Shown piece after piece: positions 20,401-38,898 of a stretch of DNA of 64,000 nt; positions within the stretch are counted from its first letter, which is position 1, and each line of letters starts with the position of its first letter. The notes under the pieces are model-generated. The model was not told the origin of the DNA and did no database searches. It saw only the letters and a list, made by a program, of their open reading frames with translations. A program made the translations under genes and the position numbers. Origin of the DNA: a virus (lineage: Duplodnaviria > Caudoviricetes); the IMG/VR virus record IMGVR_UViG_3300023174_000048, positions 128,001 to 192,000 of that record. One strand, given 5' to 3'.

Positions 20401-20892
20401 TAATGGGTTTGATGATTCTATTAGTTTTAATTCAATAATAATATTGTTTGACTGGTCTAATGATGGAAGATTAATACTGATAGATTTTGAAGAGCAGTCT
20501 ACAAGATACAAGGCGCTTATAGGATCTAAAGATAAATCTTTATCAATAACGATTGTGTTGTTTAGTCCTTTGTCAAAAGAACTTTGATTAGCAAATACAT
20601 AAAAATCATTACCAGAAGATGGAAAATCTACTGTATTGTTATTATTAGACGATGAAATAGTCTCAATTCTTTTAACAACAATATTACCAATATTATCAAA
20701 TACTATTTCTCCAACACCAGTTTCAAATAGGCGACTATTTAAGTTTCTGGCTATGTAAGGAATTAAATATCCTACATGATTGGTATTAAGAATATTATAT
20801 GTTTTTATAGCAGATACTGGCTTAATACCGTCATTTTCTATAACGAAATTAAATCCAATATTATCAAATACTCTTATTAGTTTGTTTGACAT
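17437..20892 (-). CDS. Fibre/baseplate protein with C-terminal FGE-sulfatase (C-type-lectin-fold) domain
   Basis: 1151-aa ORF directly downstream of the TMP. YGTYDQNGNAAEW, GFRIAS, YRIGKYEVTNTQYCAFLNAV, KPVVFVSY, YWLPNLNEWHKAAYY at about 17900-18720. Confidence 0.8.
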   Translation of the reverse strand: MSNKLIRVFDNIGFNFVIENDGIKPVSAIKTYNILNTNHVGYLIPYIARNLNSRLFETGVGEIVFDNIGNIVVKRIETISSSNNNNTVDFPSSGNDFYVFANQSSFDKGLNNTIVIDKDLSLDPISALYLVDCSSKSISINLPSLDQSNNIIIELKLIESSNPLFINDKDGSLVCTLDSFNNYARLASTGKDWVVLNNKTPERMGVQSLNNDSDTFSIMSADINNAEMYWDSGSQRVFIGANSASSADTIIPTSGTYPFVVNNNSNGSDFIVYGSGSLNKNLFFSYDGRVGINIPSGSRPSTVFHIVNTVCQEGLRLENRTSCYPANITLYHKPSTDITSGSVVSQINLSAKNSTGNQTNYAQIESRAVNTTVYGEKGSLDITVVSGVTGIKTIQTTVDSTYVGYSGNRLQINNNGNLLLTNGSSQITVSPQSSITFSSASLYATGTSYLTNISSQNIDASNITISNLGSSGLLMVSGGKIINSPLSIDSAGSLRIPVPANKLLSTTANGAITGIYTLDDYFLTERDIVWTKYSPRTATACLRQITFADSVPSDEFAPGDQIVISYNGSNLYRRVISLELNGNAIVGLLVDESIVQNTTSNVNIYSITKGGYLTMTKSVDDGIISNSSSNTLSIRPLVDTTFNAGQKDINFSVYGLGDDPALFIKANTGRILIPSGIYSGFATGRSDMFSTIINITGVGLSNQYSSANYAYDNSRNIFSGLLSSVGTNGLPSYYGTYDQNGNAAEWIEKQDAIESRDSIEFIAGGAYSTANDSIIGSNVLKSIESLIRASGYNYVGFRIASLQGITDQTYISSTNGLNMSFVGVNNPKNIEDLNPIYIKNPAGSPTVYSQQVINNLGVVNNIYRIGKYEVTNTQYCAFLNAVAKINDRELYDIRMSSNAQGGITRISNAGYEYSTKSNMGDKPVVFVSYLSAIKFINWLHNGASITLSESDIDYNLSVGAYTIYSIGSNSYNVVKSSYRKYWLPNLNEWHKAAYYRPVNSNDFTGTSTVSIKRSEPEIIATGIDITGSAAKLYANLSVSGWLYVDHIVVGDGTIRSAKSFTGLTDPVVVDTPTSQGTTTVSPSINLLTQYNNPYASVFGSVASCISAGCSFNAKPLRLDEDTISLCSDNTLSYNEIPWWCDTNNNGPGWFN

Positions 20893-20895
20893 ATA

Positions 20896-23800
20896 TTAGG
20901 TTCTCATTGGGCGATTGTTTGCGGCTGAGTTTAAATTGCCTTCAAATTGGGTTCTATCGTATTTAGCTACTGTATTTTGACTTGTAATAGCTCCAGCATA
21001 ATGACCAGCACTTTCTCCAGCACTTTTTCCAGCAGCAGAAGCGTGGTTTTGTACAGAGCCTACGTCTAATCTAACCGATTGTGTACCATTTATTTCTGCT
21101 GTTAATGATGTTGGTATTTGACTAGCAGTCTCTGACCAAGTATTTGCTGAACTAGCAATTGTTTGTGAGGCACTAGAGAATGTTTGGCCGAAATTGTTTA
21201 ATGTTTCAGTACTGCTTTGTATCATTTGACTATATGTTTCCATTCCTGATTCGAGTGCGGTGCTTAGTTGGTTCATAGCCTGTCCTACTGCAGCGCTAAT
21301 ACTAGACGATATATCATTAGATACACCACTACTACCACTACTGCCGCCACTACCTCCACTAACTAATCCAGCCTCAGCATAATATTTGGGCGCAACTATT
21401 CCACCATTGGCCAAATAGTTAACAATTCCACCTCTATTGAAATGGCCACTATTTATAGCATTAAGAAGAGGCATATGTTGCTGACTAGACTCTCTGTTAA
21501 CAACAAACTCTCCAGGAGTTAGCATGGCTGGTACAGTATCTGTTCCCTGAGATAATGATGGAACTAATGCTCCATTATTAGCATATACCAAGCCGCCAGA
21601 AGCATACATCATTCTACCACCAGCAGGCTTAGGAACATTCTGTATTTGTCTTTCTCTTTCTGCTTTTTTATATTCTTGTGACTGAGTGTAGTGGTCAGGA
21701 ATAAGTCCTTGCGCCCCTAACTCTTGTGTTCTCTGTTCTATTCTTTTTGATTCTGCTGCATTATCGGCCATTTGTCTGGTTGTGGATTCTGTTTCTACAA
21801 CTAATTGTGCTGCTGCTCTTCCAGGACTAAACATGTTCTCGCCAAAATTTTGAGCATACCCTTGCTGTCTTTGTCTATCATTTTCTTTAGCATAGTCTTC
21901 TGCTGTTTTTTCTCCGCTCATTATTGCTGCTGCTTCGGATGCGTAACTGCCAGCAGCATAACCTCCATAAGCAGCAACGGCGCCAATGCCTGTTGCGGCA
22001 GCAGGACTTGAGGTTCCTAGTCCAAAAACTTTTGCTCCATGACCAACAGAGTGTGCTGTGTGTCGTGCTTCTCCGATCATATCAATTCCTTCTCCAACCA
22101 ATGTTGCTGTGTGTCCTGTACCAAAATGGGCATCAAGATTAGATCCCATTGTTCTCATATTTAATGGATTTCTTCCTCTGGTAGCAACAGCGGACAATCC
22201 TGTAGAAGCAGCATTTCCAGCCAAAGAACTAGTTGTCATACCATGATGACCATGAGAATCATGACTGTCATGATCGTCAACATGACCACCATTACCATAA
22301 TATCTTACTAGTCCACCTTTATTATATCCATGGAATTTCATTAACTTCTTTAAAATTCTTTCTGCTATTTTATTGCCTTTTACTTTTTCGATATTTTCTA
22401 CTAATGTTGTTAGTAGTTCTGATGGATTCTTTTTTATAGCCGATGAGCTGTATCCATTCTTGCTCTTGCCACCACTAATAGAAGATAATCCACTAGGATC
22501 ATCAACAAATTTTTCTATTTCTTTCATTAAGGGCGATTTCTGTAAACTTCTTTTTCCAAAAGGATCTTTTTTACTACCTTTCGTACTTTTTTGAAATAGA
22601 TGACCAAGCTCGTGTTTCACAATACTCTCATCAGCATATTGAGATCCAAAAACTAGTTTTGATTCTGCTGTTGTCATACCAACTTTACTAGAATTTGTTA
22701 CTGGTCTATTTATTCCTTTTATTTGTCTACTAGCATTGATTTTGTCTAGATCAACCGATACGGATTGTGGTGTAGATTTTTCAACAAATTCTGATAAGAA
22801 CTTATTCCTTCGTGCTGGAGTAACATAATCAGCCAAATCACTTGCTAAATTCTCCTGAACTTGTCTGAATGACACCGGGTCTGTAACATTAACTTTTGAT
22901 TTTGTGGCTGTTGTTGGCTTAACTGGTTTAGTTGGAATAGTTGGTTTAGTTGGTTTGGGTTTTACTATAGATGGTCCGGCAACTGTTGTTTTAGCTTTTC
23001 CTAACACGCTTTGGGTCGCTGTGCTATTTGGAACACCTTGATTAACAAGATCTTGAATCTGTTGATATTGTGCTGCTGTTATTTTGGGCTTAACTTGTGG
23101 ACCGGGTGTTGGCATAGTCAAATCAATATTTGATAATTTTTCATCCAATGCTCTGCTTCTTGCTGCTTTAGCTTTGGCCGCTAGTCTACCATAATTACCA
23201 TCATACTCTAATGGATTAATATCGTCTATGCTTCTGATTTTGGTGGGAGCAGACTCTGGGAATGTTACTGGCTTTGCTGGTTTTAAATTCTTATAAGAAG
23301 AAGTAGTGCCTGATCTATTAAGATTTGGTCTTGAATAACTTGGGGCAATACCTCTAACTCCTATAACATCACCCATTTGAGTAGCAACATCTTGAACGCC
23401 CTCAACAAAATTATTAACTGCCCTTCCGGCTCCACGAGCACCAGGAATTCTACCACCCAATCTTCCTGCTCCTCTGGCAGTTGATGTAATAGCTCTATCT
23501 ACTGTTCCAGCAACTCTGCCAACACTAGCAGCACCAGGTATTTTACCAGCAGCCCTACCAACACTAGAAACACCAGGTATTCTACTAGCGACCCTTCCAG
23601 CAGCCCCTGCCATTCGACCGGCAACATTAAATACTGCTCCTTCAGCATTAACTAATGCTCCTGCGCCTTGAGTGCTTCCATACGCAGTAGTTTGAGCAAA
23701 TGCTGTACCAAAGCCAGCCCAACTATCCATACCACCAGCCAGCTCCACATTTCTAGCATCATTACGTTGTAATGCTGTTTGCTCACCAGTTTGTATCGGC

Positions 23801-26800
23801 CCCATACCAGCAACAGCTTGTCCGGCTTCAACAAAACTAGTTGCTCCAGCACCCATAGCCCTTAGTCCAACATCGGCGGCCGCAGAAGTTGCTGCAGAAT
23901 AAGCTCCCTGTTGATTATTTAGTCTGTCGCTGTTTGCCGTAAATGTTCTTGCTCTTATAGCAGCAACATCTTGAGCAGCCGCTATCTCTTGAGGAGATGG
24001 CATTGGTCTGCCATTAGCTCTAGCCTCATCATACATATTTTCGGCTGTTCTGTTTCTTAAATTATTTTCGTCTCCAATTTTAAAAGCTGTATCATCTCCA
24101 GACATAGCATATCCAATACCTCCAACAATAGGAGATGCAACTGTTGCAACTGCTCCGGCAGTTATATTTGCCGCCCCATAAAGGGCGTCTCCAATACCCT
24201 GAGTTACTCCTCCAACATATCCTACTGCTGCCGTAGCAGGATTGCTACTATTTATATATAATGATGCTTGTCTATCTTCTTCGGCTTTTTGCTGTTGTGC
24301 TCTAACCTTTTCTGCCGCACTAACTTGTTGGGCCCCTTCAAATTGTGCTATCGCTTCGCTATTTGCTTGATCCTGTAATAGTTGTTCTGTTGTTGGAACC
24401 TTATAGCTTGCAACAGATTCCTTATAAGGTTTAGGCATATATGATCTTTGTTCATCTCTATATTTGTCTCTTTGCTCTTCTTTAACTTTTCCTTCGGCTA
24501 AGAATTTATTAAATTTATTATCTATTTCTGCTGTTTGAGCATCTTCTTTAGCTTTATTTCTTTCATTGATTACTTGCTGTCTTCTTTGTTTCTTATAAGC
24601 TTCTCTATTTCCTTCATCATCTCTCCATGCTCCTGATTCTAATAGTTGGTTAAATTCAACATCAAATGCTTGTTCTTGAGCTGCTATTTGTGCTCTTTTT
24701 TCTATTCCTATTTTTGTGCTAGTAATAGCACTATCTGCTTCTCTCTTTTTCTTCGTGTCGCTTGAAGTTGTAGCCGTTTGAATTGAAGAAGATAATCCTG
24801 GACTAGCAGTTATTCTATAAACATTTTGTGTTTCTGCTTTTGCTCGTATTTTTGGATCATTACTATATTCTAATGGATCTGTAGCGCCAACAGATTGATA
24901 AGAATTTATTTGACTATTCGGCATAAACAACTGATTTGGATATTTTATCATTGTCTCAGTCGCTAGTACATTCGATGGTGATCCAAGAGGAAAGTTAAAC
25001 CAATCTCTGCGTGAGCTTTCTCTATCTCTAGTTGTTTTTTGAGACTCAAACCTTGGGGTATTAGGATCTCCTCCATATGTATAATTTGTTCCAGCAACAT
25101 AATCTCCAGGCAACGATACTCTAGGACTTGGAACCATTGGACCAATATTAACGCCTAATCTTCCATCCTGATTTTTAATTTCTGGTGTTCTCAAATTAAC
25201 AGAAGTATTAGTCTGGGTTGCTTGTTGAGTTTGCTGTGCCTCATAAGCTCTATTATCGGCTATGCGATTAACCATTCCTTCTAAAGGATTTCTTGTTTGG
25301 TATTTTGGATCATTTGGATCTGGCTTTTGTAAAACCTTATTGGTAGTATAAGATGCTAATCCTGTTTGAACACCAGAAGAGACCGCAGGATCAGTTATAT
25401 CAGGTCTTGCAGTAGTATACTGCTGTCTAATTCCTGATTCGATTGCGGCATTTTGTTGGGCAGCCTGTTGCTCATTGCTTGGTCTTGAGTAGCCTTCATT
25501 TATTCTAGAGGCCGTTGCTGGATCAAGACCGCTAGGATTTACTGCGTTGCTAGTTATTGGAGGCAACGCAGCACTAAATGATAGAGCACGTAAACTTCCT
25601 CTATTTCTACGATCAGAACCTAACTCTTTTAGGGCTGATCTTTCTTCTGGTGTTATCTCATTAGACTGAGCACCTTTACGATAAGCACTATTTACTAAAG
25701 AAGAAATATTACGATCTTTTTCTACAGTATATGGACCGACCTCTCTTTTTATTTGATTAGATTTCAATGTTGCATATTCTGTTTCTTCTTCTGGACTTCT
25801 TCCTTTGCTTCCTTTCATCCACAATGATCGTCTTCGTGAGTCTTCAGATTTGATTTTTTTCTTCTCGTCAATAGCTTCTTGAGTTGGTCTAATTTTTGTT
25901 GTTGTTCCTCTGCCCCACGGAATAACATCTGCTCTTACTAAAGGAACCGGTAATGATGGTTGTATTACTGGTTGTGAAAATTCTTGTGGAGACAGCGACG
26001 TTTGAGCTATTGGAGTATTTAATGCTGCTGTTTCAGCATCGCGTGCTTTTTCAAATCTTTCTGTAGCTCTTTTCTTTTCTTCGTTAAAAAAATTAGCACC
26101 AACAATAGCAGAATTAGGATCCTCCTTTATGCTACCATATCCTGCATCGTTAGCGCTTCTGAGCTGTGCATCGTTTTCTTTATTATTATAATTATCCCAT
26201 CTATTTTGAAATTCTGGTTCATATTTTTTGGCTTCTGATTGTCTTTCATCTTCTGTCATCCCCATCCATCTACCATCGCCTACCTGAGATTGTGCCCAGC
26301 TAGATGATGTTCTAGAAACTACCTCATCAGGTCTTCCTCCAGTTGCTTCTGACATCATCCATGATTCTTTTTGAGCATCTATTCTTTCTTCTTTTCTTTT
26401 TTGTACTTCGCCACCCTGTGCTAAATAAACCACTCCGCCCTTACTATAATTTCCACTATTAATAGCTTTCAATAATGGCAAGTGTTCTGAGGTTGATCTT
26501 GCATTAATCACAAACTCGCCCGGAGTTAACATAGCAGGAACAGTATCAGTTCCTTGTGGTTGGAAATTTACTAATTGACCTTCACTAGCATAAATTAATC
26601 CTCCGCGAGCCTTCGGAGGAGCAACTGGGGCGGCAACTCCGATATTTAATGGAACTTTAGCTCCGCCAGGAGCATTAATTCTACCTTCATTCATATCATT
26701 ATTAAGCATACTAGCTTCAACAGTTGTTCTAAGATCATCTATACTAACCTTAAGGTTGGCATTTGCTGATACTAGAGCCTGCTGAGATTCTAATAAAGCC

Positions 26801-29800
26801 AACTCTCCTTGTGCCTTAGTAGCATCAGCCTGTAATCCAACAGACTGTAAATATTTGCTAGAAGCTTCTTTCATTGCGGGATCAGCGTTAGGATTTTCCA
26901 TAGCAGCTATTGATTGCTGAACAAGAGGATTATTCATCATTCCACTCTCGATAGCCATACTCTTTGTTAATTGTAATTGTTGTTGTTTAAAATAGTCAGC
27001 AACAGCTTGGTCAGCACTTACCCCAGGCTTTCCTTTACCCTGAGCATATTGATTTCTAATATTTAATTCTTGAGCAGCTCTTACTCCAGGATCTTGTGAT
27101 AGGGCCAGTGTTTCTTTTCTTTGATTGGCTAATACTGTATTACCAGCCTTAGTAGCTTCTCTTACACTTCCTGTTTCTCTTAATGTTTGATTAAATGCTT
27201 TGCGAGCATCTCTTTGATTACTAGCACCATTTAATCCTCCAGAAAGATTTCTTTGAAGTCTTATAAATGTTTTATTAAGTTTATCAGCTTCTTCTGGAGT
27301 ATTTGTTAGTAATGTATTAACAAAACTTTCTCTATTCTTCTGAAGATCTCTAACATTCTTTAAATCATCAAATGCTTTTTCTACTAATTCTGTGCTACTT
27401 GCTAATGTGTCTAAAGCTTCTCTTGTATCTCTTAATTGATCGTCTAATGATCTTAGTTGTATAGCAGATTTTTTAAGTTCATCAGGATCGCTCATGCCCT
27501 GTCTTTTTTCTTCTACTGCTGTTCTTTGTGCTTGTAAGTCAACAATTCTATTTTTAATTCCACCAACAGAGGTTTCTCCGCCAGCTAATCCGGCCACATC
27601 ACCCATAACTCTTGCTTGTTTCTCATCATAAGTTTCACCAACGCCCGTCATAACCTCTCTAAGATTCATATCTCCTTGAGCTCTGATATCTCTAGCTTTC
27701 TTAAAATAGTTCTGAGCATCTTTTGCTGCTTTACTAGCATCTCTAAGACCTTCGGAGAAATCGGCTAATGCCCCTTGTTTAAACGATGATAATGCTTTTA
27801 CTGCTTCAAGCGTTTTAACTCCAAAGGCCCCAAGAATATTATCGGCATCTCCTAATCCTTCTCTAAAAGCGTCTAATTCTGCTTGAGGCGTATCATTTTT
27901 TTTCTTAGCTTCTTCTGCTAAATTATTTATTCTTGTTTCTGCTTGTTTTTTAAGGCTTGTCTTTTGTTCATCTGATAAGTTTGTTTTATCTATTTGTTCA
28001 TTAGTAGTTTTAATAGCCTCTGTTTTGGCTTCTTCAACTCCCAAGCTTCCCTTGGTACTTAATTTTTCTGCTATGCTTTTTGTTATAGCATTTGGTAATT
28101 GTTGTTGTAGTTGTGCTCCGCCTATTAACTGGTTCCTAGTTTTTTCATCAACTCCTGCTGTTGCAGACTGTAAGGCTTGATTAAAATCTTTTTCAGAATA
28201 AGCATTTGGATTTTCAAGAACATTTAATTCTCTTAACTTTGGACCATTATCTTCTGATTGTCCTCTTAATGCTGATCTGCTTTTTTCTGCCGATGATTTT
28301 CTAACATCAGATTCGAATTTAATTCTATTAACAGATTCACTAATAATATTTGATAATTTTTCAAAACTAGCTGCTAGTTTTCTGCCAGCTTTGTCTGCAG
28401 CCTCTAAAGCATCAGACATTTGTTTTGTTTTTATTGCAGATTGAACCTGAACATTTGTCAGTATTTTTTGATTAGCAACTTCATCTAATATTGCATCTTG
28501 TTTTTCTTTAGAAACCTTCTCATACCCACCTTCTTCCATAATTCTTGCTCTAACCGTTTTAAGAGCATCTTCATCTGCTAATACTAATGCTCTTCTAGCC
28601 CCAATTAATTCTTTATCTGCTTGTATAGATTCTACACTAGCTCCAGTATTAATTTTTTGTGATATTAAAGCAAATGCTTTGTCTCCACTATCAGCATTTC
28701 TTTCAGCTATCTTGCTATCTAATTCATTAAAATCTTGAGTATCCATCTTTGGCTTTTCTGCTCCGGATAGAAACTCTGTCCATGTTCTAGTTTTACCCTT
28801 TTCATTTTGTGCAACCTTAGTCTCAGCAGAAACAGCTTTTAGAGATGATTCTGAGGATCTAACAAGAGCCTTATCTAAAGCCTTTTGTAGATCTATATTA
28901 CCAAGATCTTTCTCAAAATCCTTGAAAGCCTTAGCCAAATCTTTTTCAGAAGCGGCCACTTCTTCAAATCGTAAATTCTTTTCCATCTCTAGAGCAGCAG
29001 TTTCTTGTGCTCCAGTAAAATCGGTAAAATAATCAGTAGCAGCATAGACTACTGTACCTAGTGCTGTTAATCCTCCTAATAGGGGATTTATAGCCATTAA
29101 TTGAGAAGCAGTTGTTAAACCGGTTGCTAGTGTTGATCCGGCCTGTTCAATAGCGGCCCCTTTACCAGCAGCAGCAATCTTTCCTTCGTCTGTGGAAGTA
29201 TCATACATTAGATTTGCAATATTTTTCCCTTGTCCACCAACTAATCCTGCCACCATTCCAACGTCTCCCAAAGCTGTTCCAATTCCTTGGGACATTGTTC
29301 CTGAGAAGTATCTTTCTTGAACAGCTTTTTTAATAGGACTATTTCTAATATCAGTTAAACCACCAGCGCCAACTCCTTTTTCTCCCTGCTCTTTGGCCAT
29401 CTCATTAATCATTTCTCTTCTTTTACTAACTTCTTCCTTAGCAAGAGAGAGTGCTTCTGATGCTGATTTGACTGAGACACCTCTAACAGTTCCAGCATTC
29501 TTATATTCTTCTAATCTCATTGCAATAAGCTGTTTATCCATCTGAGCTAATGTTTTACGATCAGTCATTGACTGAGAAACATAACTTTGAATATCAGCTC
29601 CGCCGATGCCCATTCCTGAAAGTTCTGATCTTTTAATTCCAGTAACTTTTTCTGTGGCTGATGAGAATGCCTGCTCTTTAATCTGTCTTTGTTCTTTTTC
29701 TAATCTTCTATTAGTTCTTCGTTCTAGTTTATCTTTATCTCCTAATAATGATGGATCTTTTTTGATTAAATCTTTTTCTATTTGTGATTTTCTTTGTGCT

Positions 29801-32800
29801 GTAATTAATTTTTCTTTTTTCTCAGCTTCTGTTAAAATGGCTTGCTGGGCACCACCCGAACCAAGAACTTTACCTGTTTTTGATTCTTTTAATCCTGCTT
29901 CTAAAAATTGTCGTTTTGCTACTGCTGTTTTAGCTTGATCTCTAACATTCTTTAATGCTTTTTCTGCTGCTATTATAGTGTCTATTGATGCTCCAGTAAT
30001 CTTGAGTCTTTCAACATCCTTAGTCATTGCCTTTTCAATATCTTTATAAGATATGTCAGCTCCTGCCCCAACTTGTTCAAGAACTTTCTTAAAGCTTATC
30101 ATGCTATAACCAGCTTCTTCAAAACCTTTTGTTAATAGTTTAATATTATTAACTAGTTCTGATGAAGCTTCTATACTTTTACTATCAATAGTTTCTGGTC
30201 TGGTTTTTAATTTTTGAACTGCTGGTTCAGCAAAACCTTTTAATCCTTTCATTATTTCTTCAATACTAAAAACACTACCTCCAGTAGCAAATCTTTGAAT
30301 TACTCCTCCACCAACTACTCCTCCCTTATTATAACCCTGTAATTTATCCGCTTTATTTAATGTCTCTAACTTGCCATATCCTATTTTTTCTGCTGCTTTC
30401 TTATTAACAACAAATTCACCAGGAGTTAATAATGCAGGAACAGTGTCCTTTGATGATATTCCTGCTTGTCCTCCTTGAGCAAAGGTCTCGATATTGGTTG
30501 GCTTCAAGGGAGATGATCCAACATATTTTAATGCTAATCCTAGTGGTTTTTCAAAAAGTTTGGATTCAAAAGAATTTACTAATTCGGGATCTCCAGATTG
30601 TATTCTGGACATAAGCTGACCCAATAAAGCCCCTTCTCTTACATCTCCTTCACTTCCGGCATAAATAGATTTTCTTGATCCTCCAGGCAAGGTAAACTCT
30701 GTTCCGTCTTCGGACTTTAATGTTTGAGATCCTTCTTGAACACGTACTCCAACCGACATCATCCCAGCGTCTGGATTTTTATCAAACTTACCTTTTAATC
30801 CGGTTTGATTTTCAGTAGGAGCATATTTATCTTTAAGAGTATCGTAATTATCATGCATCCATTGTACCACTAGTCCTTTTTGTAATTCATAATCTAAATC
30901 ATAAGTTTTTGGATCTAAAGTTTCATCAAAACTTAATACCATTGGTTTTCCTGATCTATCTCCTTGAGCAACAGTGAAGTTGCTTCCTCCATTAACTCTC
31001 ATCTTAGCTTGTTGTTCTGCTTTATTCTTTTCTGTATATAAGTAGAATCCTTCTCCTTGACCATATCCTTTAGCAATATTAGAAAGGGCACCTTTTTCTT
31101 TAAAGCTCTTTAAAACACTATCATCAACTCCGGTATTGCTTCCGTGATATAGTTTAACTTGTCCTCCAGTAGCATATCCTCTATTTTTTCTCCACATTTT
31201 TTCATCATTAGTTTTGGTCTCAAACTCTTTTGGCTTGCGACCTTGTTTTTCCATAGCCTCTTGTATTCTTTTTTGTTTATTAGCCTGGGCAAGTTCATAT
31301 CTTTCTTGTTCTGGTGATGTTTTTTTAGATGGTATTAGTCCAAATCTTTTGTTTATCTCCCAGTCTGGAATAGCATAGTCTTTATATCTATTATCTAATC
31401 GTTCTTCTAATTTTGCTGTGAGTTCTTCTTGGCTCATGCCCAAAGTCTTTGCTCGTGCGGCAATATCGGGTGGGGAATATGATCCTCTTACCCAGCCACC
31501 CTCGGAAAGCATTTGTATGTCTTCTTTGACGGGTTCTGGAATTCCATATTGTTGTCTAAAATGTTTTTGGAATTCTTCAACAGCCTTGCCTCTACTATTA
31601 CTATCTATTGTTCTTTTAACTTCTGTTGGAATATCAGGATCGATACCAAATATTTTTGCTGCTTTAGATCCGATGCCCATTGGAAAGTCAATCGGACGAG
31701 TTCTTAAAGCATCGTCTAATATTGTAGCATCTGCTGATCCAAAAATTTGTTCTAGTAAAGCGCCTTCAATATTACCCTGACCTAATGTTTCTCTTTGTTT
31801 TTTAGTTAATTTCTTTGGAGATATTCCAAGAAGTTTGGCTGCTCCGCCTACAATTTCTTCTGTTTGACCACTAAGATAATCAATTACATTTTGATATTGA
31901 TTTGGTAATCCTCTCTGAACTATTGAAGCATCTATTGATCTTTCTTGTCCAGACGAATCAACTCCAAGATTCCAAGTTTCTGGCCCTAATAATCCAGTAT
32001 ATCCCAATGGATTTAATCCAACTAGTCCTAATTGTTTTGACGATAATACAGCGCTAGTTGTTTCTGCTAGTGACGTGGCCTTTTGAGTTCCTTGTGATTC
32101 ATTAAATTTGTCTATTAGATAGTCTCTTGTTGCAATATAGTAAGCGAGCTTGTCTGCTTTTGTTTCTGGTCTAAATGCAGAATTCCAGTATTTTAATTTT
32201 CCTCCTTCGGCGGTATCTCTTACTGTTTTTCCTGAGAATGGACCAAAACTTGCGTCATTTGGTAATCTGTCTGTTCCAAATCTTTTTAATATCTCTGTTC
32301 CTTGTGCTGGTAATATCCCAGAAGACTTCTTGACCTGAGTAGCCTTTTCTACATTTTTTAGTATTGCTTCTTGTAGTCCAGAAGGCATTGCTGTTGGCAC
32401 CCCACTAAATTCACCGGCCATGCCTTCAGACAATTGGGCCGATATGACATCTTTAGATAAGTCGGATGGCTGTGCTGATACTGATGCTCTGCGTGATGGA
32501 TCTAATCCATAAGCATCTGGATATTTAGCAGATAATAAGGAGATTATATTGTGTGCTCTGTAGCCCAAAAGACTGGAACTCAATTCGTCTCTTTTCTCTC
32601 TCATAGCTTCAATTTGGGCTACTACATCTGGAGCATTGTCTCTTACCCTTTGAGTAATATTTTTGCCGTATGGGCCTCCTGGAGCTTCTGCTAACATTTT
32701 TTGAATTTCAGCATTTGTTTGAGCTTTTTGATTTGCTCCATATTTTGTTATTTCTTCAATAAGCATAGGAACCATCACGCTGCGATTTCTTAGCTGTGCT

Positions 32801-35800
32801 CTATTGCCCATGAGAACAGAAGCAACTTCTGGGCTAACAAAACTAGTTAAAGCTTCATCATCTCCATTAATCACTGCTTGCCTAACTTTAGTAGCACTAA
32901 TATCGTCTATCCTTGGAATATCTGTTACGTCAACTCCTGCTTTTTCATATTTTTGAAGAGCACCGGCTTTTTTCCCTGATGTGATTGCTAATGCTCCTTT
33001 TAGTTTAGCAAATTTTCTACGACCATTAGCTCCTTGAACCTCCATCATTTTTGGCAAAACATCTCCTCTGCCAGTTGATTCGGCACTTATCATGCCTCCA
33101 GGAAAATTAACTCCTGCTAATAATGCTCTAAAATCTGCTGGAAATATGCCATATCGTGCAGCATGTGCGAGCTTCTCTGCGTCGGTATCTCCTTCTCCTC
33201 TGTCCATCGATAAATTAGGAGCAACACTCACTATAATATCTTCTGCTGAAGCATTTGGATTTCTAGAAATCATATTACTTAATAAAGTATCAAATGCTCC
33301 ACGATGGCCTCTGGTCGGTGGAGCAAATCCACCAGTGTAGTATCCACCAGCCTGAACAATTTCTGGCAATTCTTCTTCAGTCTTACGTCTTAAACCAAAA
33401 CCTCCTGGTTTGCGACCAAGAACGGTTGCCCTTTTACCTAATTCATCCCTTAATATACTCTCTTCTACTGTAAAATCTCTAGGAGCAATATTTGTAATTC
33501 CTGGTTTACGACCATATAGACCTTCCCCCGTTAAATCTCTCTGAACTCTATTAGCTCCTATTTGATCTTGTTCTTCTGTTGTATTGGAACTTAATATATA
33601 TGCTCTATCAACATCTTTTAAATATGCATCTAATTTTTCTTGACTAGCAGTAGATGTTAAGACTATAACCTCATTAACTTTAGCAATATCTTCAGGGCTA
33701 AGAATTGAAGAGCGAATAGTTTTTCTTAAAGTTGCATCATCTGGAGATCCTTTTCCCGTAGCCAAACTACTTTTGCCTGATCCTGCTGCTCCAGCGATTG
33801 CTGTTAATTTTGATAAAGACTCTTCTTTTCTTGCTTGTGCTGCTAATTTTGCTAATTCTCTGCTATATAAACTAGTATTTGTAATTCCAAGTTTTTCCAT
33901 GGCTGGTCCAACAATATCGGCATTTGCTGGATCTCGTAAAACATCTGTATCTATAATTCCTATATTTCTTTGTACTTTTCCACCAGCAGCATAAGTTTGT
34001 CTCTGAATACCAGCACTACCCAATAGATCAGTTAGTGTAGAATCTAAAGCTCCTTGAAGATTACTATCAAGTCTAGGATAGTTCTGAACTAGTGTTGTTA
34101 AAAATTCTTCTTTCCCACTATCTTCTATTCTATCAATATAAGATTGAGAAATACTATTATCTAATAATACCTGATTAACTTCTGGATTTAATGGTTTAAA
34201 ATCTTTAGCCTTTTTAATACCAAGAGATTTTGCCCAAAGAGAGGATGCGGCGGTGGCTGCTTCGGGAGTTTTAGCAGGCTTGTCTCCCCTGCTAATAGAT
34301 CGATTTTGTTGTATAATTTGATCTAATGTTCCAACTTTGTATGAACGTCCATATACAACATCCGAACTATTATAGCTGGACTCTAAAGCATCAAATGCAT
34401 CTGCTAAATCATTATTATCTCCACTAAATAGTGAAACAACTCTTGATTTATATTTATCAAAACTCTCTGATGATCGTGTTCTTAATCCTTGAAATAATTG
34501 ATGGGTCATTTCATGATAAAAAGTATCATTTTTTCTACCAGAAAGTCTTCCGGTGCTCATGGTGATCGCGCCACGGCCAGTAGCTTTAGCTGTGGTTTGC
34601 ATCTGATCCATAGCAGTTAATTCTGCTTGGTTTTTTAATTTTTTAGTATTAGATATCTTCATTTGAAGATCATTAATCTCATCCCAAGTTTGTTTAGCTA
34701 ATGCTTCATCATATGAAAAAGATCCGTCATCAAAAGTTTTTACTGGTGTTTTTATTATTTTCTTCAATTCTTTTTGTTTTTCTGCTACTAATTTTTCATA
34801 TCCATAAAGATCCTGGTCATTGGCCTCTGTATATCCAGAACCAGATAGGTCATAGCCAGATGTGCTTTTAGTACCCATACCCGTTCTATCAAATTGACCA
34901 AGACCTTTTAATCCCAGATCAGTAAAATCAATATGACTTGGTAGAGCTAATGATAAATCTTCTTTTGGTAGTCCTATGAATTTAGCAAAGTCACTCATTC
35001 TTCTATAAATAGCGCTATTAGCTAATTTACTCTTGAAAGAATCTGCAAACTGCTTTCTATCGAATGGTATTGAGTCAAAAGCTTCGGTTGCTTTTGCTTG
35101 ATCCACTTTGAATCTAAAGTCTTCTGGATATTCCAAGAAGGATCCTCCACTAAAAGCTTTATCAACTTGTTCTTTATTTAGCTTGGCGTCTATTTCTTTG
35201 AAATAGGCATTACTAATTCTTTTGGGAAATGGAAAAGTTCCACTTCCAAATGATCGGGTTTCTTTTGCTTTTCCTCCGGCCATGAATTTTTGAATTTTTC
35301 CACCAAGATTTTTTTCTGTAAATCTACCTGTTTTAAATTCATCAGATATAGTTAAAATATTTGAATCGCCTTCTATAAGTAATCTATTATATCTATCTTT
35401 ATCTCCTTGTACAATTTGTTTCTTTAACTGCTTCAATTTACCTTCATCTGCATTATTCAGATTTTTTTTCAGTTCTTCTGTAGCCTTGTTTCCAGCCTCC
35501 ACAGCCGTTAGTCCTGAATCTGTTACTATTGTTTCTGGTGGTATAACCCAATCATTACTCTTTTTTCCTGTTTTTTTAACCTTACTTAATATATTAGCAT
35601 TTTTTTCATATTTTGATATTTGATCTAATTTTGCTTGACTGACTTTACTTTCTCCAGTTTTTTTAGAGTTAGCTCTCTCGCCCATAGTCTCATATGCATC
35701 AAAACCTCCTACTCTGAATTCTACTTCAAAAGGCTTTGGTCTAGGAATAGCAGTTGCAATAAAGCTATCTCCATCTTTTACTTTTTTAATACTTTCAAGT

Positions 35801-37593
35801 GATCTTATCTCAACAGCACCACCGCTAGCAAACCCTTTTCTTCGGTTTGATCCTCCAGCTCTTATACTTCCTCCACCACCATACTTATTCATATTATGAA
35901 GATTATCCGATCCTATAGTCTCAACAGCTTTTTTTCGTATCACAAATTCTCCTGGCTCTAACATTGCAGGAACAGTATCTCCACTACCAGTGCCTGGAAC
36001 AACACCTCCTCTTGCGAATTTTCTAATTACTCCACCACTAGCTTTACCATCTGGTCCTCTTTTAACTCCAGTACTAAAACCACTAGCAAATTGAGTTAAA
36101 GCTTTGGCGCCCTTAAATGCTGTTATAACAGCAAGAGCGGGTAATATTCCTTTAACAGCATCTGTCACTTTAATTAGTCCACTAGCTAAACTTAAAGCTC
36201 CTCTTATTAATGACTGAAAACCTTTTGATTGTCCTATTTCTCTGAATAGAGCAAAAAACTCTTGTCTTACTTTGCTAATTTGATTGGCCAAAGAAAGTTG
36301 TGCTGTTGCAGCATCTTTCGCTAATGATCCTTGACCAGCTTGTGCAGTCTTTAATGCTTCTTGAGCAACTGTGAACTGCTGAATAAGCGGAATAACTTTA
36401 CCAATTTGTCGGAATCCACCAAGTTCTTCAACTATCTTAGAGAACTGAGCAGTTCTTGGATCAATTCCACTCAATCCCTTACTTAATAATTCAACAGCTT
36501 TATAGGCTCCTACGAATTTACCTTCGGTATCAGTTAGATTAACTCCAAACTCTTTGAGAGAATCAATTGTGCTTCCTCTCTGAATACGAGTAAAAATAGT
36601 TCTTAAGCCAGTAGCAATAGTTTCAGCACTTTCACGAGTTGTAGCACGAACACTTGTGAACACTGCTATAAATTCATTTAAAGCATCCTTACCTTCACTA
36701 ACTCCTTTACTTGCAGTTGCAAATACGCTACCCGTTCTTTGAACAGCAGTAATAATGTCAGAAGATTCAACAGCGAATCTTGCAGCAACAGTATTTACAG
36801 CACCTAGTGCTCCTTCTAAATCATCAGCACTAATACCAAACTGTCTCATTAATGCGATACTTCCTTCTACTGTCTCATTCATATTATCAAATGATGGAGC
36901 TAAACTACTTAAAGCTAAAGCTCTTAATGCTTTTTCTGTTTCTCTCGCACTCAAACCAGCCTGTGCTAATGTAGAAGCAACAGAGGTTAAATCTTTAGAA
37001 CTAACACCAAATGTTGTTGACAGATTTGTAATTTGTTCTTGTAGTTTTGCAAGGCCAGATGACGATTCTCCGGTTACCTGTTGTAATTTAACTAATTCTT
37101 TATCATAATCAATAAATGCTTGAACACCCTGACTAATACTATTTGTTAATCCGTATATAACACTAGTAACAGTACTAAATGCTACGAATCTTCTAATGGC
37201 AAGACCAGCCTGTTTACCGAACTCTTGCATCTCTGCTGATGCTGATCCAAGATCTTTTGCTGACGAGGCTGATGCTTTGTTAAGTTTATTAACAGCATTA
37301 GCTGCTGCATTTATTTGTTGTGGAACGTTATTTATTTTGACGCTATTTATGCTGTTACCAAAAGCTTTGATAGCTGCTGAAGCAGCAGTAGCAGACGTTG
37401 TCGTTGAACCAAATGCGGCATTTAAGCCTTTGAGAGACGATGACAAAGCCGCAACATTTTTAGTAACAGCAGGATCAAGCTTAAAAGTAATATTTGCATT
37501 AATGTTACCAAGATCTTTTTTAATTTGTGCAGCAATTTGCTTTACATTTGTTGGTCCTTGTAAATTCAGTTGTGCAGTTAAGTTGAATGCCAT
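20896..37593 (-). CDS. Giant tape measure protein (TP901-type core) fused to multiple enzymatic cargo domains (polyvalent TMP)
   Basis: 5565-aa ORF after the tail tube and chaperone genes. The N-terminal ~500 aa carry the TP901-family TMP core (FIDYDKELVKLQQVTG...TLAQAG...QFGI...NTVAARFAVESSDI...TIATGLRTIFTRI); later long Ala/Glu/Lys coiled-coil tracts. Cargo motifs are listed under findings. Confidence 0.92.
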   Translation of the reverse strand: MAFNLTAQLNLQGPTNVKQIAAQIKKDLGNINANITFKLDPAVTKNVAALSSSLKGLNAAFGSTTTSATAASAAIKAFGNSINSVKINNVPQQINAAANAVNKLNKASASSAKDLGSASAEMQEFGKQAGLAIRRFVAFSTVTSVIYGLTNSISQGVQAFIDYDKELVKLQQVTGESSSGLAKLQEQITNLSTTFGVSSKDLTSVASTLAQAGLSARETEKALRALALSSLAPSFDNMNETVEGSIALMRQFGISADDLEGALGAVNTVAARFAVESSDIITAVQRTGSVFATASKGVSEGKDALNEFIAVFTSVRATTRESAETIATGLRTIFTRIQRGSTIDSLKEFGVNLTDTEGKFVGAYKAVELLSKGLSGIDPRTAQFSKIVEELGGFRQIGKVIPLIQQFTVAQEALKTAQAGQGSLAKDAATAQLSLANQISKVRQEFFALFREIGQSKGFQSLIRGALSLASGLIKVTDAVKGILPALAVITAFKGAKALTQFASGFSTGVKRGPDGKASGGVIRKFARGGVVPGTGSGDTVPAMLEPGEFVIRKKAVETIGSDNLHNMNKYGGGGSIRAGGSNRRKGFASGGAVEIRSLESIKKVKDGDSFIATAIPRPKPFEVEFRVGGFDAYETMGERANSKKTGESKVSQAKLDQISKYEKNANILSKVKKTGKKSNDWVIPPETIVTDSGLTAVEAGNKATEELKKNLNNADEGKLKQLKKQIVQGDKDRYNRLLIEGDSNILTISDEFKTGRFTEKNLGGKIQKFMAGGKAKETRSFGSGTFPFPKRISNAYFKEIDAKLNKEQVDKAFSGGSFLEYPEDFRFKVDQAKATEAFDSIPFDRKQFADSFKSKLANSAIYRRMSDFAKFIGLPKEDLSLALPSHIDFTDLGLKGLGQFDRTGMGTKSTSGYDLSGSGYTEANDQDLYGYEKLVAEKQKELKKIIKTPVKTFDDGSFSYDEALAKQTWDEINDLQMKISNTKKLKNQAELTAMDQMQTTAKATGRGAITMSTGRLSGRKNDTFYHEMTHQLFQGLRTRSSESFDKYKSRVVSLFSGDNNDLADAFDALESSYNSSDVVYGRSYKVGTLDQIIQQNRSISRGDKPAKTPEAATAASSLWAKSLGIKKAKDFKPLNPEVNQVLLDNSISQSYIDRIEDSGKEEFLTTLVQNYPRLDSNLQGALDSTLTDLLGSAGIQRQTYAAGGKVQRNIGIIDTDVLRDPANADIVGPAMEKLGITNTSLYSRELAKLAAQARKEESLSKLTAIAGAAGSGKSSLATGKGSPDDATLRKTIRSSILSPEDIAKVNEVIVLTSTASQEKLDAYLKDVDRAYILSSNTTEEQDQIGANRVQRDLTGEGLYGRKPGITNIAPRDFTVEESILRDELGKRATVLGRKPGGFGLRRKTEEELPEIVQAGGYYTGGFAPPTRGHRGAFDTLLSNMISRNPNASAEDIIVSVAPNLSMDRGEGDTDAEKLAHAARYGIFPADFRALLAGVNFPGGMISAESTGRGDVLPKMMEVQGANGRRKFAKLKGALAITSGKKAGALQKYEKAGVDVTDIPRIDDISATKVRQAVINGDDEALTSFVSPEVASVLMGNRAQLRNRSVMVPMLIEEITKYGANQKAQTNAEIQKMLAEAPGGPYGKNITQRVRDNAPDVVAQIEAMREKRDELSSSLLGYRAHNIISLLSAKYPDAYGLDPSRRASVSAQPSDLSKDVISAQLSEGMAGEFSGVPTAMPSGLQEAILKNVEKATQVKKSSGILPAQGTEILKRFGTDRLPNDASFGPFSGKTVRDTAEGGKLKYWNSAFRPETKADKLAYYIATRDYLIDKFNESQGTQKATSLAETTSAVLSSKQLGLVGLNPLGYTGLLGPETWNLGVDSSGQERSIDASIVQRGLPNQYQNVIDYLSGQTEEIVGGAAKLLGISPKKLTKKQRETLGQGNIEGALLEQIFGSADATILDDALRTRPIDFPMGIGSKAAKIFGIDPDIPTEVKRTIDSNSRGKAVEEFQKHFRQQYGIPEPVKEDIQMLSEGGWVRGSYSPPDIAARAKTLGMSQEELTAKLEERLDNRYKDYAIPDWEINKRFGLIPSKKTSPEQERYELAQANKQKRIQEAMEKQGRKPKEFETKTNDEKMWRKNRGYATGGQVKLYHGSNTGVDDSVLKSFKEKGALSNIAKGYGQGEGFYLYTEKNKAEQQAKMRVNGGSNFTVAQGDRSGKPMVLSFDETLDPKTYDLDYELQKGLVVQWMHDNYDTLKDKYAPTENQTGLKGKFDKNPDAGMMSVGVRVQEGSQTLKSEDGTEFTLPGGSRKSIYAGSEGDVREGALLGQLMSRIQSGDPELVNSFESKLFEKPLGLALKYVGSSPLKPTNIETFAQGGQAGISSKDTVPALLTPGEFVVNKKAAEKIGYGKLETLNKADKLQGYNKGGVVGGGVIQRFATGGSVFSIEEIMKGLKGFAEPAVQKLKTRPETIDSKSIEASSELVNNIKLLTKGFEEAGYSMISFKKVLEQVGAGADISYKDIEKAMTKDVERLKITGASIDTIIAAEKALKNVRDQAKTAVAKRQFLEAGLKESKTGKVLGSGGAQQAILTEAEKKEKLITAQRKSQIEKDLIKKDPSLLGDKDKLERRTNRRLEKEQRQIKEQAFSSATEKVTGIKRSELSGMGIGGADIQSYVSQSMTDRKTLAQMDKQLIAMRLEEYKNAGTVRGVSVKSASEALSLAKEEVSKRREMINEMAKEQGEKGVGAGGLTDIRNSPIKKAVQERYFSGTMSQGIGTALGDVGMVAGLVGGQGKNIANLMYDTSTDEGKIAAAGKGAAIEQAGSTLATGLTTASQLMAINPLLGGLTALGTVVYAATDYFTDFTGAQETAALEMEKNLRFEEVAASEKDLAKAFKDFEKDLGNIDLQKALDKALVRSSESSLKAVSAETKVAQNEKGKTRTWTEFLSGAEKPKMDTQDFNELDSKIAERNADSGDKAFALISQKINTGASVESIQADKELIGARRALVLADEDALKTVRARIMEEGGYEKVSKEKQDAILDEVANQKILTNVQVQSAIKTKQMSDALEAADKAGRKLAASFEKLSNIISESVNRIKFESDVRKSSAEKSRSALRGQSEDNGPKLRELNVLENPNAYSEKDFNQALQSATAGVDEKTRNQLIGGAQLQQQLPNAITKSIAEKLSTKGSLGVEEAKTEAIKTTNEQIDKTNLSDEQKTSLKKQAETRINNLAEEAKKKNDTPQAELDAFREGLGDADNILGAFGVKTLEAVKALSSFKQGALADFSEGLRDASKAAKDAQNYFKKARDIRAQGDMNLREVMTGVGETYDEKQARVMGDVAGLAGGETSVGGIKNRIVDLQAQRTAVEEKRQGMSDPDELKKSAIQLRSLDDQLRDTREALDTLASSTELVEKAFDDLKNVRDLQKNRESFVNTLLTNTPEEADKLNKTFIRLQRNLSGGLNGASNQRDARKAFNQTLRETGSVREATKAGNTVLANQRKETLALSQDPGVRAAQELNIRNQYAQGKGKPGVSADQAVADYFKQQQLQLTKSMAIESGMMNNPLVQQSIAAMENPNADPAMKEASSKYLQSVGLQADATKAQGELALLESQQALVSANANLKVSIDDLRTTVEASMLNNDMNEGRINAPGGAKVPLNIGVAAPVAPPKARGGLIYASEGQLVNFQPQGTDTVPAMLTPGEFVINARSTSEHLPLLKAINSGNYSKGGVVYLAQGGEVQKRKEERIDAQKESWMMSEATGGRPDEVVSRTSSSWAQSQVGDGRWMGMTEDERQSEAKKYEPEFQNRWDNYNNKENDAQLRSANDAGYGSIKEDPNSAIVGANFFNEEKKRATERFEKARDAETAALNTPIAQTSLSPQEFSQPVIQPSLPVPLVRADVIPWGRGTTTKIRPTQEAIDEKKKIKSEDSRRRSLWMKGSKGRSPEEETEYATLKSNQIKREVGPYTVEKDRNISSLVNSAYRKGAQSNEITPEERSALKELGSDRRNRGSLRALSFSAALPPITSNAVNPSGLDPATASRINEGYSRPSNEQQAAQQNAAIESGIRQQYTTARPDITDPAVSSGVQTGLASYTTNKVLQKPDPNDPKYQTRNPLEGMVNRIADNRAYEAQQTQQATQTNTSVNLRTPEIKNQDGRLGVNIGPMVPSPRVSLPGDYVAGTNYTYGGDPNTPRFESQKTTRDRESSRRDWFNFPLGSPSNVLATETMIKYPNQLFMPNSQINSYQSVGATDPLEYSNDPKIRAKAETQNVYRITASPGLSSSIQTATTSSDTKKKREADSAITSTKIGIEKRAQIAAQEQAFDVEFNQLLESGAWRDDEGNREAYKKQRRQQVINERNKAKEDAQTAEIDNKFNKFLAEGKVKEEQRDKYRDEQRSYMPKPYKESVASYKVPTTEQLLQDQANSEAIAQFEGAQQVSAAEKVRAQQQKAEEDRQASLYINSSNPATAAVGYVGGVTQGIGDALYGAANITAGAVATVASPIVGGIGYAMSGDDTAFKIGDENNLRNRTAENMYDEARANGRPMPSPQEIAAAQDVAAIRARTFTANSDRLNNQQGAYSAATSAAADVGLRAMGAGATSFVEAGQAVAGMGPIQTGEQTALQRNDARNVELAGGMDSWAGFGTAFAQTTAYGSTQGAGALVNAEGAVFNVAGRMAGAAGRVASRIPGVSSVGRAAGKIPGAASVGRVAGTVDRAITSTARGAGRLGGRIPGARGAGRAVNNFVEGVQDVATQMGDVIGVRGIAPSYSRPNLNRSGTTSSYKNLKPAKPVTFPESAPTKIRSIDDINPLEYDGNYGRLAAKAKAARSRALDEKLSNIDLTMPTPGPQVKPKITAAQYQQIQDLVNQGVPNSTATQSVLGKAKTTVAGPSIVKPKPTKPTIPTKPVKPTTATKSKVNVTDPVSFRQVQENLASDLADYVTPARRNKFLSEFVEKSTPQSVSVDLDKINASRQIKGINRPVTNSSKVGMTTAESKLVFGSQYADESIVKHELGHLFQKSTKGSKKDPFGKRSLQKSPLMKEIEKFVDDPSGLSSISGGKSKNGYSSSAIKKNPSELLTTLVENIEKVKGNKIAERILKKLMKFHGYNKGGLVRYYGNGGHVDDHDSHDSHGHHGMTTSSLAGNAASTGLSAVATRGRNPLNMRTMGSNLDAHFGTGHTATLVGEGIDMIGEARHTAHSVGHGAKVFGLGTSSPAAATGIGAVAAYGGYAAGSYASEAAAIMSGEKTAEDYAKENDRQRQQGYAQNFGENMFSPGRAAAQLVVETESTTRQMADNAAESKRIEQRTQELGAQGLIPDHYTQSQEYKKAERERQIQNVPKPAGGRMMYASGGLVYANNGALVPSLSQGTDTVPAMLTPGEFVVNRESSQQHMPLLNAINSGHFNRGGIVNYLANGGIVAPKYYAEAGLVSGGSGGSSGSSGVSNDISSSISAAVGQAMNQLSTALESGMETYSQMIQSSTETLNNFGQTFSSASQTIASSANTWSETASQIPTSLTAEINGTQSVRLDVGSVQNHASAAGKSAGESAGHYAGAITSQNTVAKYDRTQFEGNLNSAANNRPMRT

Positions 37594-37695: not shown

Positions 37696-38595
37696 CTAAG
37701 CTGGAGCAACCTCTTTTGATTCAGAAACGACGGGCTGAGCTGGTTGAGTCTCTGGCTCGACTGTTTCTGTTTTTGCTGTTGGTTCATCTTTTTTGTCTTC
37801 TTCTAAGATAACTGGGTTTCCGTTTTCATCTAGGAACGGCTGTGCATCAACGAGATAATCTCCATCAGAAGTTACTCTGTTACCATACTTATCAACAAAG
37901 TTACCTTCTTCGTCTATAAATCGTCCACTCTCATCAATTAGCCTACTTTCCGCATCAATTAGTCTGCCCTTCTTGTCTACTAATCGTAGCTTATCGTCAA
38001 CAAACTTAAACTTCTTTAAGAATTTGTTTTCTGGTAAATTACTTTCATAGTCATTATCCAAACCATACAGCATATTGGCCAAGTTTTGTGCTCCTAGTAG
38101 TCCAACCTGATCAGTTGATCTATTAAGATAGTCTTCCATATTGTTGAAATACGGTTGCTTGCTATCATTATACACCACACAAACACTAACTAAATAGTTA
38201 AATCTAGCATTATCAGCTTGACCTTCGGCACTATGGTTGTCTAGAGATGTACGAACACTGATAAGATCTCGTATTTCATCTCTGACGCCCTTCATTTTAA
38301 TTGCAAGGTCTTTGGCTTCGTTTAAACTAAATCCACCCTTAGCAAGTCTCTTCTCGCCATCAAGCAACTCTTTTTGCAAGGTGGTGAACTTAGCCTGTTT
38401 TTCATCGTTCCATAAACCCTGATCTTCTAATAGATCATCTAATTTTGCCCTCACAACACTTTTGCTTTTAATAGCATCAGTAAAAGCTTGATTATAAACT
38501 TTTTGGGCTTCTCTTTGATCATTTAAAGACGGTGTTTTAACAAGAAACTCTTTTTCTGCACCATCAACTGTTGTCTTAAAAGTCTTAGTCTTCAT
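37696..38595 (-). CDS. Probable tail assembly chaperone
   Basis: Last gene before the TMP. Likely start is ATG 38595 (AAGGAGA RBS) rather than 38622 from the track. Acidic C-terminus with D-x-x-G-R/N-x-[IV]-D repeats. Function is inferred from synteny. Confidence 0.65.
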   Translation of the reverse strand: MKTKTFKTTVDGAEKEFLVKTPSLNDQREAQKVYNQAFTDAIKSKSVVRAKLDDLLEDQGLWNDEKQAKFTTLQKELLDGEKRLAKGGFSLNEAKDLAIKMKGVRDEIRDLISVRTSLDNHSAEGQADNARFNYLVSVCVVYNDSKQPYFNNMEDYLNRSTDQVGLLGAQNLANMLYGLDNDYESNLPENKFLKKFKFVDDKLRLVDKKGRLIDAESRLIDESGRFIDEEGNFVDKYGNRVTSDGDYLVDAQPFLDENGNPVILEEDKKDEPTAKTETVEPETQPAQPVVSESKEVAPA

Positions 38596-38887: not shown

Positions 38888-38898
38888 GGTGTTACTTT

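Follow-up and report, generated by a model that had tools for sequence, protein, structure and literature searches.

Why does the tape measure protein (TMP) of a tailed virus repeat one short glycine motif, and what might that motif do where it stands between the domains that the protein carries as cargo? The question is raised by a stretch of 64,000 nucleotides from a virus of the Caudoviricetes (IMG/VR record IMGVR_UViG_3300023174_000048, positions 128,001 to 192,000; hereafter the window), in which positions 20896-37593 of the (-) strand form one uninterrupted open reading frame (ORF) for a protein of 5,565 aa, P0001. Its N-terminal core is a TP901-type TMP, both family models matching above their curated cut-offs (PF10145 at aa 185-391, E 1.7e-24, 87.2 bits against a cut-off of 33.2; TIGR01760 at aa 146-479, E 4e-32, 111.5 bits against 28.8), and several PHROG TMP families match the protein as well. 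A first-pass annotation of the sequence had proposed that a motif [FYL]-x-x-G-G-x-V sits between nearly every cargo domain, like a cleavage tag, and all seven motif sites that it listed are present at the coordinates it gave, on the (-) strand and within this one ORF. Here we show that the glycine unit, used alone, is a universal joint between exchangeable cargo modules in P0001 and its relatives, and that this joint lies in a short unstructured linker beside a folded domain and is kept by selection whatever module follows.

The glycine unit and its cassette

With its last position relaxed, the motif [FYL]xxGGx[VAI] occurs 18 times in P0001 where 1.25 +/- 1.1 copies are expected from composition, and the stricter form [FYL]xxGGxV occurs 14 times against 0.31 expected; none of 5,000 shuffles reached either count. 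The GG dipeptide by itself shows no enrichment (59 copies against 45 expected), and a high glycine content therefore does not account for the signal, which belongs to the motif. The motif corresponds to a single copy of a 9-residue unit, GG-x-[VI]-Q-[KR]-[FY]-A-x. Eleven of the 18 copies are found inside four full cassettes, in which glycine units frame a conserved core, and orphan copies stand elsewhere in the protein as two doublets and three singles (Table 1).

In order to see how widely the cassette is distributed, a profile of the four P0001 copies was searched against 1.84 billion representative proteins, of which 16,367 matched at E<=1e-3 and 973 at E<=1e-30. The 150 top-scoring matches, referred to below as the 150 giants, are all 1,600-7,900 aa long and carry 3-10 cassettes each. 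An alignment of 769 cassettes from these giants gave the consensus [F/K][A/S]xGG-x-[IV]-[YF]-A-s-G-G ... P-[RK]-G-T-DTVPAMLTPGEFV-[VI]-N for the first half and L-x-L-L-x-x-I-N-x-G-[YF]-[AS]-x-GG-V-x-[YF]-L-A-x-GG for the second half after the core, the 9-residue unit standing twice on each side of the core DTVPAMLTPGEFV. The first cassette of the giants lies at a median of aa 518, always after the TP901 core, and between the end of the last one and the C-terminus there is a median of 143 aa. A single cassette is also present in many TMPs of GenBank phages, with hosts that include Mycobacterium, Gordonia, Shewanella, Vibrio, Nodularia and Brevundimonas, among others. A close relative of the whole of P0001 is absent from the GenBank phage collection, where we found only TMP-core similarity to SPbeta YomI-type proteins. 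Pfam holds no model for the cassette (60 cassettes matched no relevant family at E<=10), and a literature search returned no paper pairing 'tape measure' with 'GEFV'.

Two ideas on the nature of the cassette were rejected. Since its core resembles GDSMxPTL..GD, it was tested as the hairpin of an S24/S26 Ser-Lys peptidase (LexA, signal peptidase), and none of 60 cassettes matched Pfam S24/S26 at E<=10; the position of the Ser nucleophile is Asp in the cassette consensus. As an autonomous fold, the cassette was modelled by AlphaFold with 60 sequences at a pLDDT of 61.7 and a pTM of 0.30, only the helix after the core being confident.

The orphan copies are a property of the whole group, as the 150 giants contain 431 of them where 114 are expected (a 3.8-fold enrichment), and their number rises with protein length (Spearman 0.72). 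A set of 434 orphan copies from these proteins shares one logo, the 9-residue repeat GG-x-[VI]-Q-[KR]-F-A-x-GG-x-[VA], and the GG-to-GG spacing is exactly 9 in 49 of the 64 close orphan pairs. The doublet NLGGKIQKFMAGGKA recurs in 6 other giants, where it stands before homologues of the same module but at other places in the protein. What follows one and the same module end (...[FL]AxGGxV) differs between relatives: another module, the ART-like start KLYHGS, or the cassette core DTVPALLTPGEFV; the orphans are therefore cassette flanks used without the core. The unit was also compared with other known glycine motifs and set apart from them: the orphan logo is without the third G and the D of the RTX nonapeptide (GGxGxDxUx), and the motif is hydrophobic at -3 from the first G, not at -4 as in a double-glycine leader or a ubiquitin-like LRGG tail. 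A scan of neighbouring ORFs revealed no C39 or JAB protease.

The joint at module borders

Module borders were located from the termini of high-scoring segment pairs (HSPs) in BLAST comparisons of P0001 with its relatives. Among 192 HSP termini in the cargo regions, 41% fall within 10 aa of a motif, as against 8.4% of positions, and they form clusters at aa 760-780, 1190-1219, 2030-2049 and 2140-2149. Subject ends of HSPs carry the motif as well as query ends, and the cargo modules recur at other positions in other giants. The placement of the motif at module borders is thus borne out, although the wording "nearly every" was too strong: the joint is absent at the breakpoints at aa ~1700 and ~1850-1935, and the second cargo block has no joint between aa 3750 and 5090.

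The module spanning aa 1188-2048 was examined in an alignment of 24 sequences (29-74% identity), in which the joint glycine G17 is invariant and G8 and G18 nearly so, a conservation on par with that of the Walker A and HIGH residues of the same alignment. The F, A and V of the joint are strongly conserved at module ends in homologues at 29-37% identity. Within the window the motif codons differ synonymously, which indicates that selection acts on the peptide and rules out a recombination signal at the DNA level. In the AlphaFold model of aa 1188-2048 (mean pLDDT 75.9), both flanking motifs are located in linkers of pLDDT <50 that adjoin the folded part. For YAAGGKV, the pLDDT is <50 up to the first motif residue and low across the motif, with the first beta-strand beginning at the final V; LSEGGWV is in a tail of pLDDT <50 immediately after the last helix.

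A further match to the search pattern (aa 1418), GGYYTGGFA at 33322..33348 on the (-) strand (aa 1416-1424, within GGYYTGGFAPPTRGH), is not a joint. It is the HIGH-motif loop inside the nucleotidyltransferase (NTase) fold, where residues 229-237 of the model have a pLDDT >90 and form a strand (E230-234), and where G234, F236, P238, G242 and H243 of the HIGH region are invariant in the 24-sequence alignment.

Is the joint cut? Comparison with other tape measures

In regards to function, the most informative comparison is with phage lambda. By three methods of sequence comparison, each giving a significant result, the P0001 cassette is homologous to a segment of the lambda TMP gpH at aa ~733-790. 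The translated gene H carries a single copy, in the order FATGG (GG at aa 736/737), GEFV core (E756) and YATGG (GG at aa 781/782); hhalign of the cassette against gpH 680-853 gave a probability of 90.9% and E 1e-6 (match at aa 733-787), a hidden Markov model (HMM) of the 769 cassettes matched gpH with E 1.2e-5, and a sequence profile search of the PDB returned gpH chain 8iyk_H at 733-786. PF09718 covers gpH 627-701 only and not the cassette. It has been reported that gpH matures to gpH* by a cut in the glycine-rich region near its C-terminus, made once the tail has been assembled but while the head is still to be joined, with neither the cut site nor the protease established in about 50 years, that residues ~690-817 are unresolved in the structure, and that gpH* is ~78 kDa and the released peptide ~14 kDa (PMC12617516, citing Hendrix and co-workers). 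A cut at FATGG would by calculation yield 80.1 and 12.2 kDa, which is compatible with the reported masses but not discriminating. The two proteins have in common the same cassette, the last one standing shortly before the hub-binding C-terminus, but gpH has one cassette only, no orphan joints and no cargo. There is no peptidase domain in gpH.

The one TMP cut that has been precisely mapped is that of phage T5, in which pb2 is cut after R1127 to free a C-terminal enzymatic fragment (PMC10038345). The cut sequence, R1127|AEGGMMYPG, is the only match in pb2 to [KRFYL][AS]xGGx[IVLM][YF], with 0.002 expected for a pattern that was written post hoc, and the same pattern is present in 281 of the 769 cassettes. 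At the profile level pb2 was rejected as a cassette homologue (hhalign E 0.38, HMM E 48), and its likeness to the cassette unit, ~8 residues at the cut site, is a lead only. The hhalign comparison places the cassette core on pb2 aa 1080-1113, DSGADTTQYLTLGERQKNV, upstream of the T5 cut, at the same non-significant E of 0.38; if that match were real, pb2 would have a degenerate cassette whose trailing GG unit is the place of the cut.

We tentatively favour the reading that the joint is a recognition site where the TMP is cut, while placing its chances slightly short of even. Cleavage is plausible because of the homology to lambda gpH, because short, conserved and unstructured joints lie at exact domain borders, and because one TMP cut, that of T5, has been mapped; a short conserved motif at domain borders and in predicted unstructured linkers is also the pattern of a polyprotein site. 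The cleavage tag of the first-pass annotation is to that extent upheld as an interpretation, by way of the cassette homology to the gpH cut region and the T5 look-alike. By analogy with lambda (gpH to gpH* and gpHC) and T5 (pb2 to pb2* and pb2C), the cut would most likely be made after the tail tube closes around the TMP, or on ejection, and the cargo enzymes would reach the host before the DNA does, each as a protein of its own. Going by the T5 site, the cut position would be just before A-x-G-G, and a protease other than the in-cis HExxH domains or the prohead protease would probably be responsible.

Several points weigh against cleavage. It has been observed in no multi-cassette TMP, P0001 included; the lambda cut, being unmapped, may instead be upstream of the cassette, near aa 690-730; and, as pb2 is without a detectable cassette, the T5 parallel comes down to the ~8 residues mentioned above. 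No protease was recognised among the 10+10 neighbouring ORFs of the window or around the relative P0027. In their fixed 9-residue spacing and hydrophobic i/i+3/i+4 pattern, the doublets resemble a repeat with a structural or docking role more than they resemble a minimal protease site. Furthermore, the only cargo-bearing giant TMP to have been studied, gp96 of the Thermus phage P23-45, is uncut in virions, although it is free of the motif: this TMP of 5,002 aa, which carries a virion RNA polymerase at its N-terminus, was seen at full length in virions by Western blot and is still active (bioRxiv 10.1101/2022.12.01.518664). It resembles P0001 as a giant TMP that delivers an enzyme to the host, and is thereby a functional precedent for TMP cargo, but it carries one cargo and not many. 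As a relative it was rejected, since it has no cassette, 3 motif matches at chance level and no HExxH, and it is an analogue only.

On a wider version of the cleavage reading, which we regard as unlikely, TMPs in general would be processed by the gpH-type cassette together with its 9-residue GG units. Self-contained, and either autoproteolytic or switched on within the tail tube once closed, these would cut at aromatic/basic|A-x-G-G joints. Such a system could explain both the lambda gpH and the T5 pb2 cuts, and would turn the TMPs of jumbo siphophages into trains of separately released, pre-made effectors injected ahead of the DNA.

The best surviving alternative, a serious possibility that we nevertheless judge clearly less than even, is an uncleaved docking or hinge joint. 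The units would bind a partner (the tail assembly chaperone, the tube lumen, the hub or neighbouring TMP chains) or act as hinges, the cargo modules being unfolded, threaded and refolded separately while the TMP stays whole, as in P23-45; the flexible hinge that the first-pass annotation had offered as its own alternative remains within this explanation. A cassette that AlphaFold does not fold by itself, apart from the helix after the core, is what would be expected of a peptide that folds on its partner, and the strict 9-residue periodicity, with a conserved V..FA between the glycine pairs, points the same way. So do the occurrence of the cassette in more than 16,000 TMP representatives, most of them presumably without cargo to release, its fixed positions after the TP901 core and ~143 aa from the C-terminus, which make it more than a simple border of cargo, and the ability of P23-45 gp96 to function uncleaved (bioRxiv 10.1101/2022.12.01.518664). 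However, in lambda and T5 the cut of the TMP is made within units of this kind or next to them, a plain hinge needs no conserved aromatic-Ala-x-GG-x-Val, and no binding partner has been identified.

Cleavage by the HExxH peptidase modules of the TMP itself or by the prohead protease, the two cutters named in the first-pass annotation, is improbable and poorly supported. Both HExxH motifs of P0001, HEMTH at aa ~1000 and HELGH at aa ~4990, are found within joint-bounded modules, and built-in zincins have been proposed to process the polyvalent proteins of phages and conjugative elements (Iyer et al. 2017, PMC5512222). Yet only 45 of the 150 giants have an HExxH motif, and the other 105 keep their orphan joints, at 0.61 per 1,000 aa against 0.83 in the 45; gpH has the cassette and is cut without a peptidase domain; and no Pfam zincin or MPTase match was obtained in P0001 at E<=0.1. 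As for the prohead protease, gpH is cut on tails before head joining (PMC12617516), so that a protease internal to the head would have no access to it.

Least probable of all, in our view, is that the orphans are neutral scars, decaying leftovers or recombination linkers from cargo inserted into or moved with cassette pieces and functionless now: the first-pass annotation was right on an origin from the cassette, and the equivalence of orphans and cassette flanks, the full core that follows the same module end in some relatives and the scaling of orphan number with protein length all agree with it, but not if its wording is taken to mean neutrality, against which stand the invariant or nearly invariant glycines and the strongly conserved F, A and V of the joints, held down to 29-37% identity, the family-wide enrichment of orphans, and motif codons that vary synonymously and carry no DNA-level recombination signal.

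Other systems bear on the question less directly. The polyvalent proteins join many unrelated effector-type domains in one injected polypeptide, as P0001 may do, and the ART-PolyVal-like module described below is a lead in that direction; the paper that describes them never mentions tape measures (0 occurrences of 'tape') and defines no cleavage or junction motif (PMC5512222). In the 1,699-aa TMP of mycobacteriophage Douge, gp16 (PDB 8ZDO chain S), a profile search of the PDB gave weak cassette-like matches at aa 965-1027 and 1412-1458, with E 17 and 26 for the single stretches and 0.012 for the whole sequence. Only residues 1658-1699 of gp16 are resolved and no processing is reported (PDB 8ZDO; PMC13033339), but Douge is a cultured phage solved by cryo-EM and, if its two matches hold, it would be a tractable multi-cassette case. 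The paper on the dissection of the TP901-1 TMP reports no processing.

Cargo modules, tail genes and significance

The features of P0001 are listed in Table 1. When the cargo modules were searched by sequence in Pfam, NCBIfam and the PDB, the TMP core and a weak NTase-associated match were the only results, and no Pfam PolyVal family was over threshold in P0001. Of the cargo names given in the first-pass annotation, the nucleotidyltransferase is the one that gained support: Foldseek of the AlphaFold model returned NMNAT/PPAT adenylyltransferases with a probability of 1.0, alongside a weak Pfam HIGH_NTase1_ass match, and an NMNAT/PPAT-like identity of the HIGH-type fold is thus supported at the level of the model. 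Its HIGH signature loop and the Walker-A P-loop share one joint-bounded module. The SNase, the REase and both peptidases had no Pfam or PDB sequence match, and neither did the ART-like module, whose putative ART identity is only a lead from the feature search.

Table 1. Features of the tape measure protein P0001 (nucleotide positions are those of the window; HSP counts are from BLAST comparisons with relatives)
Feature	Window position	Position in P0001 (aa)	Strand	Remarks
Conserved backbone		1-600, 2400-3750, 5300-5500	(-)	common to 60-130 of 150 relatives
Variable cargo, two blocks		600-2370 and 3750-5300	(-)	sparse sharing among 150 relatives
Cassette 1	35809..36051	~515-595 (best profile stretch 509-598)	(-)	core DTVPAMLEPGEFV preceded by two GG units and followed by others, the last FASGGAV; PHROG TMP matches
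FASGGAV		588	(-)	closing GG unit of cassette 1
Module	35311..35808	596-761	(-)	SNase-like only according to the first-pass annotation; no Pfam or PDB sequence match; common to 13-23 of 150 relatives
Orphan doublet NLGGKIQKFMAGGKA	35266..35310	762-776	(-)	GG-to-GG spacing 9; HSP starts cluster at aa 760-771, ends at 770-780
Module	33994..35265	777-1200	(-)	contains HEMTH (zincin-type HExxH); recurs elsewhere in other giants; no Pfam match
Orphan joint YAAGGKV	33973..33993	1201-1207	(-)	21 HSP starts and 10 HSP ends
Module	31510..33972	1208-2028	(-)	Walker-A P-loop region, HIGH-type nucleotidyltransferase (model-supported), C-terminal helical/beta domains
Orphan joint LSEGGWV	31489..31509	2029-2035	(-)	15 HSP ends at aa 2030-2049; pLDDT <50
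Short module between two joints	31177..31488	2036-2139	(-)	homologues end at a YATGG-type joint
Orphan joint YATGGQV	31156..31176	2140-2146	(-)	directly before KLYHGS; 8 HSP ends; conserved in relatives
ART-like module (lead only)	30484..31155	2147-2370	(-)	feature search: top three clusters ART-PolyVal PF18760, scores 0.85-0.87
Cassette 2	30268..30483	2371-2442	(-)	FAQGGQA, core DTVPALLTPGEFV, YNKGGVV, FATGGSV; PHROG TMP match
Cassette 3	26401..26616	~3660-3731	(-)	phrog_25241, E 1.2e-8
Orphan doublet YNKGGLVRYYGNGGHV	22279..22326	5090-5105	(-)	follows the HELGH module; GG-to-GG spacing 9; HSP ends at aa 5100-5119: 2
Cassette 4	21391..21630	~5322-5401	(-)	~165 aa from the C-terminus, the usual place of the last cassette

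The second cargo block (window 21900-26340, aa ~3750-5230) is mostly of low complexity and rich in Q, S, T and N, with long Gly/Ala-rich hydrophobic stretches at aa ~4440-4760 and ~5110-5230, and it is common to 0-7 of the 150 relatives per 100-aa bin. A His/Asp-rich run, DDHDSHDSHGHHG, at 22240-22278 (aa 5106-5118) comes directly after the doublet at aa 5090-5105 and could be a metal-binding tract beside the HELGH module.

P0001 has the setting of a tail module, as downstream ORFs match fn3 and minor-tail or tail-fibre PHROGs, and the relative P0027 has the same layout; candidates for a tail assembly chaperone lie upstream, at 37696-39936. The exact protein is on record on a contig of 225,860 bases, which points to a jumbo siphophage. 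Two downstream tail proteins on the (-) strand, at 17437-20892 (1151 aa) and 6799-10470 (1223 aa), each have an FGE-sulfatase-type domain (PF03781, E ~1e-11), unusual in tail or fibre proteins and possibly a module for receptor binding. With the entire 5,565 residues helical in the tube, a tail of ~830 nm would be predicted, and the conserved backbone alone (~2,200 aa) would give ~330 nm.

There are known precedents in TMP processing (lambda, T5), in an enzyme-bearing TMP (P23-45) and in the polyvalent proteins, and the architecture of P0001 is a variant of these. For lambda itself, the comparison provides conserved candidate sites in gpH, FATGG and YATGG, for a TMP cut that can now be tested directly. 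If the joints are not cut, they still represent a widespread and undescribed linear motif of TMPs, present in more than 16,000 representative proteins and without a Pfam model, whose partner would reveal how the TMP is handled during tail assembly. If they are cut, giant TMPs would constitute a second, tail-borne route by which ready-made enzymes (a nucleotidyltransferase, an ART-like protein and others) reach the host before phage gene expression, and the joint would be a natural plug-and-play boundary for the swapping of cargo.

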